Positions 1,194 to 7,960 of a stretch of 61,323 bases of DNA are shown here, piece after piece (the first letter of the stretch is position 1; each line of letters starts with the position of its first letter). The notes beneath the pieces are model-generated. The model ran no database searches. It was given only the letters and a program-made list of their open reading frames with translations, and had not been told where the DNA came from. The DNA is from a virus (lineage: Duplodnaviria; Caudoviricetes): positions 1-61,323 of the IMG/VR virus record IMGVR_UViG_3300027647_000002; one strand, written 5' to 3'. The position numbers and the translations under genes are program-made.

Positions 1194-1822
1194 CAGAGCT
1201 CCACCGCCCAATCGGTCCAGCGCTCGCGGGTTCCGGTGCGCCACGCCACCCGGGGTTCGGTGCGGGTCTTGCCGTCCCGATGCTGCACCAGAGTGGGTAG
1301 GTCGCGATGGTTGACCAGGCTCGGCCACGCATACCCGATGCTATGGCCACGGTTGCGGCACCACATGCCCATCCGCTCATCGATCGGCAGGGTCGAGGTG
1401 TTCGCCCACTCCAGCCAGTCGTCCCGCAGCTCGGCACGCATCACGATCGCCACAGCGTGCAGCATGTGCGTACCGGTGACCCAACATGCGCCTTGCTCCC
1501 CCGCAGCGACGAGCGCCCGGGAGATCCGGTCCTGGAACCGCTTCGGCTTCGACCGGCCCAGGTACAGGGACACGATCGGAGTCGGCGCTACGGCCAGTGC
1601 TGCGTCCACCTGCTCGGCGAACCTGGGCGCCAGGATGGCGTCGTCTTCCATCACGCCGAAGTGTGTGGCGCGGGGGTGGTCAACCCTGCTCCATGCCCGG
1701 AGGTGGTTGTCGTCGGCGCCCAGCGTGCCGTCGTCCATGGAGGCGACAGCATCGAGGGAGTGGACGAGGTCGGTGGCGTGGATACGGCGGGACTCGTGAC
1801 CGACGACAGCCCAGGAGATCAA
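1193..1822 (-). CDS. Glycosyltransferase (GT-A, GT25-like actinophage type)
   Basis: VMEDDAIL motif, PIVSLYLG, LPIDE, PSLVNHRD; TTG start overlaps upstream stop. Confidence 0.75.
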   Translation of the reverse strand: MISWAVVGHESRRIHATDLVHSLDAVASMDDGTLGADDNHLRAWSRVDHPRATHFGVMEDDAILAPRFAEQVDAALAVAPTPIVSLYLGRSKPKRFQDRISRALVAAGEQGACWVTGTHMLHAVAIVMRAELRDDWLEWANTSTLPIDERMGMWCRNRGHSIGYAWPSLVNHRDLPTLVQHRDGKTRTEPRVAWRTGTRERWTDWAVEL

Positions 1823-2514
1823 CGCGTGGCCTGCCAAGCATCGAAGTCTTCCGGCTTGTCGAAATCTTCGGTGCGGTCGTCGATGTACCTGTAGCACGGG
1901 TAGCGGCGATGGAACCGCATCGCTTCACCGGTGGCGCCGGCCATCGCGCGGGCGATCTCCCAGCCGCCGGAGCGCTTCAGCTGCCCGGCACGGTGAGCTT
2001 CGGCCGCGGCCTTGATCGCATCCCGGTAGCGGCCGTGATGCTCTGGCCAGAACGACACCGCCCAGTTCTCGCCGAAGCTGCGATGCCCTGGGAGGGTGTT
2101 TGTTTTCGAGCCGGTGAAACGGCACCAGTTAAGCCACTCTCGCTCATCACTGGCGAGGATGGTGTCGAGGCCAGCGTCGGAGAACCAGACGTCGCCGTAG
2201 CAGATGATCGTCCGGCCGAGGGTGTTCCAGAACGGCTCGGTGTTGGCGAACTTCGTCGCCCCCAACCATTCATCGGTATCGGCGAGCACGTCCGGGGTGA
2301 ACACTTCCACGTGGGCGGGCACGTATTCGGCGTAGTAGGCGGGCCCGGACACCATGACGTCGGTGATGCCGCGTTCGGTGAGCTGGCGAGTGGTGCGGGT
2401 CAGCAGTGGTTCGCCGTCTGGCTCGCACAGGTGCTTCGGGACACCGCCGAACGGCTCTCCGTCAGCGCCACGCCAGCGTTCCCCAGAACCGGCGGCCATG
2501 ATTATGCAGCGCAT
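1819..2514 (-). CDS. NTP-transferase (LicC/MobA-like nucleotidyltransferase fold)
   Basis: IIMAAGSGERW...PKHL...GEPLL N-terminal signature; YGDV; EDFDKPEDF near C-terminus. Confidence 0.8.
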   Translation of the reverse strand: MRCIIMAAGSGERWRGADGEPFGGVPKHLCEPDGEPLLTRTTRQLTERGITDVMVSGPAYYAEYVPAHVEVFTPDVLADTDEWLGATKFANTEPFWNTLGRTIICYGDVWFSDAGLDTILASDEREWLNWCRFTGSKTNTLPGHRSFGENWAVSFWPEHHGRYRDAIKAAAEAHRAGQLKRSGGWEIARAMAGATGEAMRFHRRYPCYRYIDDRTEDFDKPEDFDAWQATR

Positions 2515-3251
2515 CTCAACAACCCTTCAATCGGCCATTTCGCATGCTTTCTCTGATTGCACGCGGCGCAAGCTGGGCGCAAATTCGCGAGAATGTGTGC
2601 CCCTCCTTTGGATAGCGGCTTCACATGGTCGATGTGCTGGTAATCGCTATCTCGGCACATCCAGCATTTGCCTCCGTAGTACGCAATCCGCTCGGCCAAC
2701 TGACGCTCGGTGAACGGCACGTAAGACGCCGCGTGCCGCCTTGCGCGTCGTCGCGCTGCCGCCTTAATGCGTTTCACGCGGTAGTCCGGATCGGTTTGCC
2801 GATAGTGTCGGTCGCACATGTCCTTACGTACGGCGATTTCAGCGCAAGAGCCGATGATGCATGCATGACCTCGCCTTAGCACTTGCCGATGCAGGTCATG
2901 GCCTCGGCGATGCCTGAGGTAGTGGGCGACGCAATACCCTTTCGACTTATGGGGTCGGCCACATTGCGCGACCGTGCAAGTTTCGGGGTGATTTACACGA
3001 TCAATCGGCGTTAATGGTCGACCAACAGACTGTTGCCAATGATGCGTGCTGCATAGGCCGTTCCCGTGAACGTATCCGCCGCAGCCGTCGAACACGCAGT
3101 TCTTCCGGCATTCACCAGGGATGCGACCGCGACGCCGACCTGATTCGCCGGGATGTCCCAGCCTTTTCCAGCGCTGCCAGTGCATCGAGCAGTAACCTCG
3201 ACCTACTGTCGGTCTTTCGCACCCATCGATTGAGCACGTACGATCAGCCAT
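2502..3251 (-). CDS. Mobile HNH endonuclease with four N-terminal Cys/His zinc-finger repeats
   Basis: 4x C-x4-C-x9-C-x2-H repeats; CWMC...HIDHVKPLSKGG...NLRPACAACN; lower GC than neighbours. Confidence 0.88.
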   Translation of the reverse strand: MADRTCSIDGCERPTVGRGYCSMHWQRWKRLGHPGESGRRRGRIPGECRKNCVFDGCGGYVHGNGLCSTHHWQQSVGRPLTPIDRVNHPETCTVAQCGRPHKSKGYCVAHYLRHRRGHDLHRQVLRRGHACIIGSCAEIAVRKDMCDRHYRQTDPDYRVKRIKAAARRRARRHAASYVPFTERQLAERIAYYGGKCWMCRDSDYQHIDHVKPLSKGGAHILANLRPACAACNQRKHAKWPIEGLLRCAA

Positions 3252-3325
3252 GTCGATCTCCTATACAGATCGGCCACACCCCGGGGCAGTTGACGCTGTC
3301 GCCGGGGCCTTATGTTTGAAATCTA
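3252..3325 (-). promoter_or_regulatory. Leader of mobile HNH: GC-rich hairpin plus SD-sequestering hairpin
   Basis: Minus strand: TAGATT...GGCCCCGGCGACAGCGTCAACTGCCCCGGGGTGTGGCC GATCT-GTATAGG-AGATC GAC ATG. Confidence 0.5.
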
Positions 3326-3351
3326 TTGTCGCAGAGCAACAGCCATGATGA

Positions 3352-4278
3352 TCACCCGCACAGCCCGACCTCCTTCAACACCCGCTCCATAGCCGCCTTC
3401 CAGGTGTGGCGTTCACCGATCAGGGTGATCGCCGCGTCCCGCATATCGCGGATCTCCCGGTCGGACATCGACGTGTACCGGTCCAAGATGGTGTCGAACT
3501 CGCCGCGGGGGAAGCGGATCAGCGTCTCGTCGGTGAAGCCCTGTTCGTCCATGCCCTCCACGTACGGGTGGGCGAGGATGCCGCCGCGGCCCAGCGTGCG
3601 AGGAATGCGGTCCGACCAGTAGTAAGGCGCGTCCGCCGAGTCGCCGAGCACGATGTCAGCGGAGGCATACAGCCGGTTCAGATCCCAGCCCCAGACCTTC
3701 CGGTCCCGGCGGGTGCCGTACAGGGCGTAGCCGGCGCCGAATGTTTTCTCGGCCCACGCGAGTAGTTCGCTGCGGTGTCGTCCGTGCAGTCTCGGTATCG
3801 GCCGGCCGACGAACACCGCCTGGTGTCGGTACCTCTCCACCGTCGGGGCGAGGCCGAGATATCGGGTACCGAAAGCCGGAGGGAACCACCGGTGGTTCAC
3901 GCCCCGCCAATCACGGGGCCCGCCGTCCGCAGTGAACACGTACTGGCAGGACCACCACGCGGTTTTCCCGATCTCGTCCTGCCGGGGGCTCAGCCCGTGG
4001 AACAGGTCCATGTGCAGGCCCACCGTAACAACGCCTCGGGACTCCAGTTCACGCAGGCAATCCCGGACCTCACGGTCCGGGGATTTCGGGGTGTCCTTCA
4101 ACCACAACAGCATGTCCGCGTCGCGGGCGGCGTGGCGGATATCGGCGACGGTCGTTTCGTCGTTCGGCAGGGTCGCGGTCACCCGGTGGCCGAGCTGACG
4201 TAATCCCTCGACGGTGTCGGGGCGCCAGGACTCGACGATGTGGTTCTCGTGCTTCCAGCCCAGAACGACGATGTTCAA
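3352..4278 (-). CDS. Glycosyltransferase (GT-B, CgeB/Glyco_trans_1_2-like)
   Basis: AVFVGR...VWGWDLNRLYASADIVLGDS...YYWSDRIPRTLGRGG...HTW. Confidence 0.85.
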   Translation of the reverse strand: MNIVVLGWKHENHIVESWRPDTVEGLRQLGHRVTATLPNDETTVADIRHAARDADMLLWLKDTPKSPDREVRDCLRELESRGVVTVGLHMDLFHGLSPRQDEIGKTAWWSCQYVFTADGGPRDWRGVNHRWFPPAFGTRYLGLAPTVERYRHQAVFVGRPIPRLHGRHRSELLAWAEKTFGAGYALYGTRRDRKVWGWDLNRLYASADIVLGDSADAPYYWSDRIPRTLGRGGILAHPYVEGMDEQGFTDETLIRFPRGEFDTILDRYTSMSDREIRDMRDAAITLIGERHTWKAAMERVLKEVGLCG

Positions 4279-4282
4279 GGGG

Positions 4283-4357
4283 TTACGCCAAGATGGTCAA
4301 GACTGCGACGGCGACCTTGGCCATGACGAGCAGCAGATCGAGGCTCACGGATCCCAT
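4283..4357 (-). CDS. 24-aa hydrophobic peptide MGSVSLDLLLVMAKVAVAVLTILA
   Basis: AGGAG RBS then ATG; translated by hand. Confidence 0.55.
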   Translation of the reverse strand: MGSVSLDLLLVMAKVAVAVLTILA

Positions 4358-4432
4358 GTTCAGTTCTCCTAATCGGTCATATCGGGCGAAACATACCGGG
4401 TGGATTAAGGCCACCTGCGGTTATGGAGGAGT

Positions 4433-6813: not shown

Positions 6814-7679
6814 GAGGATGTCTTACGTGGGTGTAATTCGTTGTCCGGCATGATGTGAACCGTGGTCGACAGGCTTGCTCAACGACTGGTCCCGGATGCG
6901 TTGTGGGACATCGTGAAACCGCTGCTCCCCGAATTCACGCCAAGACCGCAGGGCGGCGGGACCGCACCGGTGGACGAGCGAGCGGTGTTCACCGCCGTGG
7001 TGTTCGTGTTGACCAGTGGTTGCGCGTGGCGGCATCTGCCGCCGTCGTTCGGAGTGAGCGTGCCGACCGCGCATCGCCGGTTCACGGTGTGGGCCGACGC
7101 CGGAGTATTCGAGGCGTTGCACCGGGCAATCCTCGACCGGCTCGGAGCCGCCGGCGATCTCGACTGGAGCGCGGCGATCCTGGATGCGGCGAGCGTGCGA
7201 GCAAAAAAAGGGGCTCCCTGACCGGACGCAGCCCGGTCGACCGTGGCAAGAAAGGATCGAAGATCCACGTCATCTCGGACGCGAATGGGATTCCCCTGGT
7301 GACTGGTGTTTCCGCCGGGAACACCCACGACTCGGTGATGCTTGCACCGATGGTCGCCTCGATCCCGAAGGTGCGCTCGCGGCGAGGCCCACGCCGCGGC
7401 AAACCCGCCAAGCTGCGGGCGGACAAGGGCTACGACTTCGACGTCCACCGTCGCTGGCTACGTGCCCGCGGAATCGTGCCCCGCATCGCCCGTCGCGGGA
7501 TCGAGGATCCCACGAGGTTGGGCAAGCATCGGTGGAAGATCGAACGGACTATCGCGTGGTTGACCGGATACCGGCGATTGACGATCCGATACGAACGCCA
7601 CGGCCGTCTCTTCGCAGCATTTCTGCAACTCGCCGCAGCTCTCACCTGCTACAAGAAACTACCCACGTAAGACGTCCTC
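6814..7679 (+). mobile_element. IS5-family insertion sequence (866 bp), intact
   Basis: 19-bp terminal IRs GAGGATGTCTTACGTGGGT / ACCCACGTAAGACGTCCTC (1 mismatch); TTA duplication at 6811-6813 and 7680-7682. Confidence 0.95.
6862..7670 (+). CDS. IS5-family transposase, orfA (6862-7221) joined to orfB by -1 frameshift
   Basis: orfA SGCAWRHLP; AAAAAAAG slip site at 7203-7210; orfB ADKGYD...RWKIERTIAWL. Confidence 0.92.
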
Positions 7680-7708
7680 TTAATAGCCACACCGGCAAGG
7701 AGCTTCAG

Positions 7709-7960
7709 ATGGCGAAAGACCGCAGCATGGCAACCGGCCCGTACCCCCTACGTGGCCGATTCGACAAAATCGTTCACACAGGTTCATGCAACCGTGTGAT
7801 CTGGGTCGGCCGCCAGGTCGTACTCGTCATGTCAGACGGGGCCGAAATCCGTTGCACCCACCACAACGGACACCGGAAGAACGAGACGGCAGTCGCGTGC
7901 GCGACCAGGCTGGTGCGCGTGCTGAATGACGCAGCAGGAATACCCCGCGATAAGCAGTGA
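7709..7960 (+). CDS. Hypothetical protein (83 aa)
   Basis: AAGGAG RBS; MAKDRSMATG...; followed by hairpin. Confidence 0.65.
   Translation: MAKDRSMATGPYPLRGRFDKIVHTGSCNRVIWVGRQVVLVMSDGAEIRCTHHNGHRKNETAVACATRLVRVLNDAAGIPRDKQ

Follow-up and report, generated by a model that had tools for sequence, protein, structure and literature searches.

A putative HNH homing-endonuclease cassette in the 5' end of a phage nucleotidyltransferase gene, with a predicted replacement gene start

Introduction

To our knowledge, homing endonucleases persist in genes only by means of introns or inteins, or by the reassembly of split products. We describe here a locus that may represent a different arrangement. It lies on the minus strand of the IMG/VR virus record IMGVR_UViG_3300027647_000002 (Duplodnaviria; Caudoviricetes), a 61,323-bp sequence from a soil metagenome, classed as linear and with an estimated completeness of 84%; this whole stretch of DNA is called the window below. 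The element in question is an inserted block of about 846 bp (positions 3340-2495) composed of a pre-leader, a structured leader, an HNH endonuclease gene and a set of replacement start codons. We think it probable that this block is a homing-endonuclease cassette of the free-standing HNH kind, which has entered the gene of a nucleotidyltransferase (NTP-transferase) seven codons from its 5' end and supplies a replacement terminus for it. The first-pass annotation of this DNA, made from the letters and a list of open reading frames (ORFs), had proposed that a cassette of about 850 bp entered conserved codons of the gene, and this is now supported by the foreign composition of the block, relatives without the block, the failure to detect an intron and two parallel cases.

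The free-standing homing endonucleases of T4-like phages (the seg and mob genes, 'intronless homing') resemble the window element in that the nuclease gene lies outside any intron or intein and adjoins its presumed target gene. They are also compact, with overlapping starts and stops, and flanking markers are co-converted; as the account in PMC2988022 describes it, their reading frames embed signals of the neighbouring genes, which favors their retention. However, the T4 elements treated in that account either lie in intergenic positions or divide a gene so that two polypeptides result, while the window element appears to lie inside a coding sequence and the gene is whole. Gene-splitting insertions such as that in Aeh1 nrdA (also covered in PMC2988022) differ from the window case. 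Further differences from T4 are the cassette-borne replacement start, with the old start stranded, and the nuclease itself, in which Cys-rich repeats are combined with an HNH domain behind a conserved structured leader.

A second group of similar elements is found in fungal mitochondria (Allomyces atp6, Ophiostoma rps3, Phlebia cox2 and atp6). In the cases presented in PMC4019555, an endonuclease located near a gene terminus brings a substitute terminal segment, and the resident segment is displaced and persists alongside. The fungal insertions described there occur in organelles at the 3' ends of genes, usually as in-frame endonuclease fusions and often with LAGLIDADG or GIY-YIG enzymes, while the window case concerns the 5' end of a phage gene, with a new start codon read out of frame from the HNH tail. 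A displaced native segment is present in the window and a substitute terminal segment is predicted; instead of an in-frame fusion, the two ORFs overlap by 13 nt out of frame. The closer analogue of the fungal insertions is a second record described below, G002, in which the event is at the 3' end and the nuclease ORF continues in frame into the stranded tail.

Two actinophage systems should also be compared. The methylase HNH of the ShiLan type lies in a protein-coding gene without an intron or intein and with overlapping frames; as presented in PMC11855218, translation of the host gene continues in frame through the element, which adds a loop to the host protein, and the HNH is concealed in a different frame. 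In the window the host protein is not extended but has its terminus replaced, and only 13 nt are dual-coding. The free-standing HNH genes of Cluster J mycobacteriophages (upstream of lysA) are present or absent between close relatives, their junctions are sometimes imprecise with the target sequence lost or rearranged, and they have been proposed as drivers of mosaicism; the sections of PMC3706429 on these genes mention neither gene-terminus replacement nor a shared leader. In line with the free-standing HNH class, the window nuclease has an intact catalytic motif, its site is unoccupied in (distant) relatives and neither intron nor intein was detected. The portions of the literature that were searched contain no description of the leader and no phage case of terminus replacement, which is not proof of absence.

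The stranded and the replacement start

The glycosyltransferase (GT), HNH and NTP-transferase ORFs and the stranded start are all on the minus strand, and re-reading of the letters and of the ORF list recovered exactly the coordinates given for every feature in the first pass. The GT gene (308 residues, 4278-3352) ends with a TGA at 3354-3352. This stop is located inside a second start, GTG CGG GTG ATC ATC ATG GCT (M-R-V-I-I-M-A, 3361-3341), whose frame is open for 12 codons from 3361 and closes at TAG 3325-3323. A ribosome-binding site, AAGGAGG (3375-3369), is found 7 nt upstream of the GTG and would be that of the ancestral NTP-transferase start. In three relatives (L016, L017 and L030) equivalent purine-rich motifs occupy the same place, and the homologous NTP-transferase gene starts directly after the GT stop, in the position of the remnant. 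Across the six frames of the window, RCIIMA is matched at five or more of its six positions by two hexapeptides only, one starting at 2511 and the other at 3358. On these observations the stranded remnant is more than a chance resemblance, and the letters and the relatives agree with the original view of M-R-V-I-I-M-A as a start left over the GT stop.

The predicted working start of the NTP-transferase gene (231 residues, 2514-1819) is ATG CGC TGC ATA ATC ATG GCC (M-R-C-I-I-M-A, 2514-2494). With GAAGGG located 8 nt upstream, it appears to have its own ribosome-binding site. This replacement, or patch, is identical to the stranded start at 14 of 21 nucleotides and six of seven residues. Its first 13 nt (2514-2502) form a dual-coding overlap, which reads R-C-A-A-stop in the HNH frame and M-R-C-I in the NTP-transferase frame. 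Both the ATA codon and the TAA stop in the overlap are rare, accounting for 29 of 14,008 codons and five of 51 stops, respectively, in the long ORFs of the window. It had been noted in the first pass that ATCATGGC is repeated at both flanks. The repeat is indeed present, at 3349-3342 and 2502-2495, and is best read as the I-M-A codons common to the old and new gene starts; a target-site duplication is improbable. Another shared string, TTGAAGG, occurs at the GT end and the HNH end. Homology was rejected for this pair, which represents two ribosome-binding sites, because the frames differ and the intervening sequence is unlike.

The HNH nuclease and the NTP-transferase

The HNH gene (3251-2502) encodes 249 residues, with four Cys-rich modules of the form C-x3-C...G-x-C-x2-H followed by the HNH domain. 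It matches the Pfam families HNH (PF01844, E 1.5e-11) and HNH_5 (E 9.1e-09) as well as phrog_1271 and others, and its C-terminal 96 residues are 47% identical to Optimus gp51 of Cluster J. All the residues that are invariant in the family (15 aligned members) are retained, namely C196, C199, D208, H209, N223, C228, C231 and N232, and the nuclease looks active. The tails of the homologues end in L-A-A in eight of 14 and in A-A in nine of 14, and the window protein ends in L-L-R-C-A-A. The NTP-transferase ATG sits where the Leu of the family is Cys in the window. Because the ATG lies inside a tail that is typical of the HNH family, the tail is native to the nuclease rather than a read-through, and the 13 nt appear to be truly dual-coding. 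This bears out the earlier reading of the working ATG within the last HNH codons, in another frame.

The NTP-transferase has six homologues at 38-54% identity and matches the Pfam family NTP_transf_3 at 26.1 bits, slightly below the cut-off of 27. Its AlphaFold model (pLDDT 88.4) has a sugar/phospho-nucleotidyltransferase fold, with LicC, PntC, RmlA and MurU as the top PDB matches in Foldseek (E from 2.5e-08). Residues 2-6 form strand β1, directly followed by the A-A-G-S-G-E-R loop. The model suggests that this N-terminus is essential, as β1 adjoins the G-x-G-x-R loop of the fold. Since residues 2-6 form β1, a gene interrupted after codon 7 would lose a core strand without a replacement. The ATG at 2514, a predicted translation start, and the six codons after it restore the strand in the predicted full-length fold. 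The DNA at the insertion site is conserved, with a mean pairwise identity of 0.81-0.83 compared with 0.60 for the gene; among 676 windows of 18 nt it ranks 47th with the four closest sequences and 37th with 12 sequences, that is, in the top 5-7%.

Composition and borders of the insert

The G+C content is 0.575 inside the insert and 0.663 outside. The HNH gene has a G+C content of 0.58 and a third-position G+C content (GC3) of 0.60, compared with GC3 values of 0.86 for the GT gene and 0.81 for the NTP-transferase gene. A fit with two change points places the borders at 3354 and 2498 (ranges within 2 lnL units of log-likelihood 3265-3566 and 2449-2537), which matches the junctions read from the sequence. 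The lower G+C content reported in the first pass is thus confirmed, and the fit does not require a foreign block past about 2450. A separate feature is found just downstream of the patch, where the window NTP-transferase has a five-residue insertion relative to all six homologues (2472-2443, residues ~15-24, in the region R-G-A-D-G-E-P-F-G-G). It lies in a stretch of low GC3 and could be the mark of a short co-conversion tract.

Relatives without the insert and searches for a second copy

In L016, L017 (the same contig as L029) and L030, the GT stop and the NTP-transferase start share 4 nt, and no ORF is present between the two genes at ORF-list cut-offs of 70-80 residues. The junction of L002/L016 reads ...CTG GCA TGA over ATG AGC GTC CGA CAC ATC ATC ATG GCT GCC GG, and L016 carries ATCATCATGGCT in common with the stranded start of the window. 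The gene in L017 starts as GTG AAG GTA CTC ATC ATG GCC GCC GG, with the overlap GTGA. The start of L030, GTG AGG GTG TTG ATC ATG GCT GCG GG, is nearly identical to the stranded start, so the contiguous empty allele that had been predicted is seen there as a near-match. Other relatives have different genes at this point: an ORF of 217-220 residues lies between GT and NTP-transferase in L004 and L005, and one of 204 residues in L039. On this basis the GT/NTP-transferase junction appears to be a mosaic boundary and a recurrent site of gene insertion.

A second copy of the cassette was sought in several ways. Megablast of positions 1700-4400 against 50,697 phage records gave no match, and exact-peptide scans of viral contigs and genome contigs yielded no close relative of the NTP-transferase. 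A degenerate pattern, in which A-A-stop is fused to I-M-A-A-G, matched eight stretches in IMG/VR, all in unrelated contigs of low G+C content and none a second copy of the junction; seven of the eight contain a small ORF ending in ELAAA.

Two further patched genes

The first of two similar cases, G004 (L056), is an isolate-derived provirus record that appears to repeat the window architecture of stranded start, leader, nuclease and replacement start. The TGA of the upstream gene overlaps a stranded start, GTG ACG ATC GAG GAG TTC ATC TCG GCA CGA (M-T-I-E-E-F-I-S-A-R), whose frame closes nine codons on. Next come the leader and an HNH_3-like ORF of 254 residues. The nuclease TGA overlaps GTG AGC ACG ATC GAG GAT TTC ATT ACG CAG AGA (V-S-T-I-E-D-F-I-T-Q-R), the working start of a DUF6221 gene, whose match to the Pfam family begins at profile position 1 (E 8.1e-23).

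The second, G002, is a complete 92.9-kb phage record with terminal repeats and presents a mirror image at the 3' end. Its gene X ends in an AT3-rich segment (rich in A+T at third positions), A-R-S-Y-Q-A-A-E-R-E-L-D-R-F-H-S-S-S-A-G-Q-S-P, after which come the leader and a nuclease of the HNH_3 type (44 bits). Its ORF continues in frame into a GC3-rich stranded tail, A-R-S-Y-Q-A-A-E-R-D-L-D-R-F-H-A-D-N-R-A-H-P. The two tail copies match with a BLAST E of 6e-11; 14 of 15 residues are kept and the third position differs in 12 of 15 codons. An uninterrupted homologue, P0129, which is 85% identical to gene X, ends exactly as the stranded tail does. This suggests that the upstream copy is the replacement. 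Such confirmation by an uninterrupted homologue is available for one of the two records (G002); searches of the phage database with gene X of G002 and with the gene upstream of the G004 remnant found nothing.

The leader and its cassette family

The first ~30 nt of the insert (3340-3311) are a pre-leader, in which the hexamer TAGATT, of the TANNNT type, may have a promoter role. The promoter scan itself found one weak sigma-70-like site (2530-2501), against 0.6 expected, and was given no weight; a scan for terminator-like sites in the insert found none. The leader that follows consists of two hairpins. Hairpin 2 (3310-3276) has a G+C-rich 12-pair stem, CCCCGG...CCGGGG, which includes an inner stem of 3 bp. 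Hairpin 3 (3272-3254) has a stem of 5-6 bp, its loop and 3' arm contain the HNH ribosome-binding site TAGGAG, and it ends 2 nt before the HNH ATG at 3251. The leader, about 65 nt in all, was first traced by way of the 41 nt upstream of this ATG, which recur in other contigs of the same sample. Two contigs of that soil sample (3,857 and 1,505 nt) carry the leader at 36/41 identity (window 3247-3287), each followed by a different ORF start. This suggests that several leader-bearing elements coexist in the community.

Pattern scans found the leader core in five IMG/VR records (G001-G004 and L060), once in each, and blastn found the leader in six sequenced actinophages, LilSpotty (91% over 66 nt), Malisha, Squiddly, Maddy2, Faith5x5 and GMA1. 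Five other stretches from the pattern scans were set aside as chance matches because the surrounding leader context is absent, and the window has a single copy. In 12 of 12 loci a nuclease-type ORF comes after the leader, either directly or with a small ORF in between; in the window, hairpin 2 and the ribosome-binding-site hairpin 3 are immediately upstream of the HNH ORF. According to Pfam or the record annotation, the ORF after the leader is HNH, HNH_3, 'endonuclease VII' or GIY-YIG in nine of the 11 other loci, where GIY-YIG is that of Faith5x5 and 'endonuclease VII' is a label of the record annotation. A 108-residue ORF separates the leader from the HNH gene in L060. In G001 (L055) the leader is followed by a Cys-rich ORF (1557-2144) whose C-terminal part is a complete DUF6131 domain (residues 145-195, covering positions 1-59 of the 59 in the profile), and no terminus duplication was seen upstream; this may be another cassette ORF that runs in frame into a neighboring small gene.

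The predicted leader structure is supported by covariation. RNAalifold on 11 sequences (window 3310-3254 and ten others) gave the two hairpins, the second holding the ribosome-binding site, with 17 predicted pairs, 96.3% of cells paired and double changes in six of the 17 pairs. The covariation score is 0.287, compared with 0.105 for shuffled alignments (none of 500 reached 0.287) and at most 0.102 for slid controls. An inner pair of hairpin 2 is UA in six sequences, AU in three, CG in one and GC in one, and hairpin 3 has compensatory double changes in four of five pairs, with 90.9% of cells paired. No Rfam family matches the leader. In the window, Maddy2, Malisha and G002, the DNA stays conserved through the ~12 codons that follow the leader (M-A/S-D-R-T-C-S-I/V-D/E-G-C). 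The window insert therefore seems to be a member of a family of actinophage nuclease cassettes that share this leader, apparently an undescribed class.

It is important to compare the Gordonia phages Malisha and Squiddly with Spooky, which matches both of them on the two flanks and has no leader and nuclease block. As Spooky is without both parts where the others are occupied, the leader and the nuclease appear to move as one unit. Spooky is thus an empty site at the nucleotide level, though for a sister cassette only. In Malisha the cassette sits between genes, the ordinary case. Its insert starts immediately after GGGACAACAC, 41 nt before the hairpin, with a TTGCT...TATGAT stretch similar to the window pre-leader; the left junction of the window is ~30 nt before the hairpin, in a stretch like the start of the Malisha insert. 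In Malisha the nuclease ORF reaches into the native ribosome-binding-site region of the tail assembly chaperone, and the insert stops within the final few codons of this ORF. The first chaperone codons beside the insert differ between Malisha and Spooky at several sites, both synonymous and non-synonymous, which fits co-conversion without proving it. A 47-48 residue ORF in these phages (Malisha gp14, L064; Squiddly gp15, L066; Spooky gp14, L069) was considered as a stranded chaperone remnant and rejected, because it overlaps the major tail protein stop in occupied and empty genomes alike.

Proposed mechanism and alternative explanations

The arrangement of the locus allows us to propose the following mechanism. 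The nuclease would first cleave the conserved codons for the nucleotide-binding loop in an unoccupied allele, and the break would be repaired from a donor in which the cassette lies directly upstream of a diverged allele of the same gene. Repair would be homologous on the gene side and non-homologous on the other. The recipient's own first codons (M-R-V-I-I-M-A, after the GT stop) would stay behind, because homology exists on the gene side only and the other end is joined without it. The 3' end of the cassette would then supply a new ribosome-binding site, an ATG and the recoded first codons M-R-C-I-I-M-A, of which the first four come from the 13 nt of the HNH tail. Three features would follow from one-sided repair of this kind: the end of the remnant close to the insertion point, the divergence of the patch codons and the mirror-image arrangement at a 3' end. 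Such repair also agrees with the HNH acquisitions with imprecise junctions reported for Cluster J, which PMC3706429 attributes, in the part concerned, to repair errors or to a donor in a different context. The cassette would land in gene ends only sometimes, and then patch them.

Three consequences may be expected. We infer that the occupied allele has no intact target for the nuclease, that the patch and the remnant are too unlike to recombine the cassette out, and that a clean deletion of the nuclease gene would remove the start codon of the NTP-transferase. The last point, retention of the nuclease through the start of the host gene, is suggested because the promoters of neighboring genes lie inside seg and mob genes of T4, as outlined in PMC2988022; target loss and suppressed excision are of the same inferential kind.

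An explanation that differs from this mechanism only in the origin of the patch is that the replacement start evolved as an integral part of the cassette, so that the HNH tail and the new N-terminus were shaped by selection together. The remnant arm, leader, HNH gene and patch would then home by two-sided recombination among phages that share the GT/NTP-transferase junction. This purpose-built patch is unlikely in our view, but some features point to it. The change point at 2498 coincides with the end of the patch, the HNH tail leaves the family L-A-A exactly at the ATG, reading C-A-A, and the rare ATA codon and rare TAA stop coincide in the overlap. The third-position changes in G002 with its residues kept, and the GAT, ATT and AGA of the G004 patch against GAG, ATC and CGA in its remnant, look like directed recoding. 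However, Cys-3 occurs in the homologue P0005. Malisha and Spooky show that an ordinary cassette lies upstream of a gene whose first codons differ from those of the empty allele, a pattern like that of the patches, which a captured donor allele explains as well, and each patch is known from one instance, with none common to two records. The near-saturated synonymous differences in G002 and the change from Leu to Cys in the HNH tail thus lean toward a selected patch, while P0005 and the Malisha/Spooky pattern lean toward a captured donor allele.

Plain mosaic recombination seems to us very improbable. In this reading the HNH gene, whether a passenger or a gene with a role in packaging or some other phage function, arrived illegitimately and independently of its nuclease activity, and the remnant is a scar. 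The reading finds some support in the other genes present at this junction in L004, L005 and L039, in the known action of HNH proteins in packaging and in the second small HNH gene at 1328-894. That gene, however, already fits the packaging type (phrog_333). In addition, the leader is associated with nuclease genes of three families across 12 loci, the presence or absence of the block in Malisha and Squiddly versus Spooky is at a precise site, and three independent cases hit gene ends with patches that preserve function.

The possibility of an artefact, either an assembly chimera or a remnant produced by chance resemblance, is hardly credible. The record is metagenomic; two DNA runs from one sample and no listed RNA run contain the region, and the single full-length run is probably the source of the record itself. 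Fragments from the second run are nevertheless identical inside the insert, although none crosses a junction. The remnant has the correct position, ribosome-binding site, start codon and codons, and the same architecture occurs in the isolate-derived provirus G004 and in the complete phage record G002.

A self-splicing element, that is, a group I intron or an intein of 846 bp behind a stranded start that is still the real one, can practically be dismissed: the last base of the upstream 'exon' would be T (GCT), in keeping with the preference of group I introns, and HNH genes occur in phage introns, but no Rfam family matched positions 1700-4400 at E up to 1, a group I core RNA with its splice-site context was not found, only 89 nt of the insert are outside the HNH ORF, positions 3365-3240 fold no more stably than shuffled sequences (z -0.02), the working start has its own ribosome-binding site, and an intein is excluded by the reading frames, since the HNH is in a frame other than those of its two neighbors and the stranded one closes after 12 codons. 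The survival of the gene without splicing, as first suggested, is consistent with these results.

Several points weigh against insertion of a homing cassette with a replacement terminus. The seven-residue duplication is too short to be significant by BLAST alone (E 0.16). The homologue P0005 reads ..LRCILMAAG; since it has Cys at residue 3, this residue is not unique to the occupied allele, and the new N-terminus of the window may be an ordinary natural variant instead of a consequence of the overlap. The right-hand crossover could sit up to ~50 nt inside the NTP-transferase gene, because the GC3 of codons 1-24 is fairly low (0.60-0.67). Although the insertion site is conserved, other DNA windows of the gene are more so. 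The closest empty sites are distant (GT 62% identity, to that of L002; NTP-transferase 50-54%), and no empty allele of this phage is known at the nucleotide level. One copy of the exact cassette is known and it has no close relative, the best HNH homologue in a search of 5.8 billion proteins being 39% identical. No read or contig of the two runs skips the insert, so presence/absence polymorphism was not seen, and the junctions come from the probable source run alone. Finally, the terminus duplication is present in the window, G002 and G004 and missing in nine of the 12 leader loci (in G003 the check covered only 227 nt upstream). Patching would therefore be an occasional outcome and not a defining property of the cassettes.

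If the proposed insertion with a replacement terminus is correct, a free-standing nuclease inside a coding sequence repairs the damage with its own copy of the gene end, which would be a new mode of survival, with the same seen in two further records. It would also be a concrete route to mosaic gene ends in phages. It would explain small orphan ORFs after stop codons and would be a warning for annotation, as the true start of a gene may lie in the preceding nuclease gene. The common leader offers a handle for finding such cassettes systematically, and Malisha or Squiddly versus Spooky on Gordonia terrae, and LilSpotty on Mycobacterium smegmatis, are testable systems. More tentatively, and with rather more doubt than confidence, we suggest that actinobacteriophages carry widespread leader-marked cassettes that colonize intergenic gaps and also the first or last 7-25 codons of genes by means of a synonymously recoded patch, with the leader acting as an undescribed cis-regulatory RNA that limits translation. 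In that case the patch would keep the host gene working without splicing and would erase both the nuclease's own target and the homology with the stranded remnant. The nuclease gene would be undeletable, as it would contain the start or stop of the host gene. Homing endonucleases would then have a fourth way to reside inside a gene, in addition to introns, inteins and gene splitting.

Neighboring genes

The GT gene is assigned by Pfam Glyco_trans_1_2 (E 8.8e-09) and by phrog_28745 (glycosyltransferase, E 6.8e-86). A second glycosyl/glucosyltransferase gene (1897-1193, minus strand; phrog_854 glucosyltransferase, E 4.8e-63) follows the NTP-transferase gene, and similar ORFs are found after the NTP-transferase gene in L017, L015 and L021. 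The locus thus appears to be a phage glycosylation module (GT / NTP-transferase / glucosyltransferase) broken by the nuclease gene. The small HNH gene at the end of the same operon (144 residues, 1328-894, minus strand; PF01844, E 1.2e-05; phrog_333) is presumably of the packaging-associated type, and a similar small HNH gene is located upstream of the GT gene in L017. Farther away, at 6855-7670, two overlapping ORFs (6862-7221 and 7184-7960) are on the plus strand, opposite in orientation to the flanking genes. We take them to resemble an IS-type transposase split across two frames, an odd passenger in a virus record.

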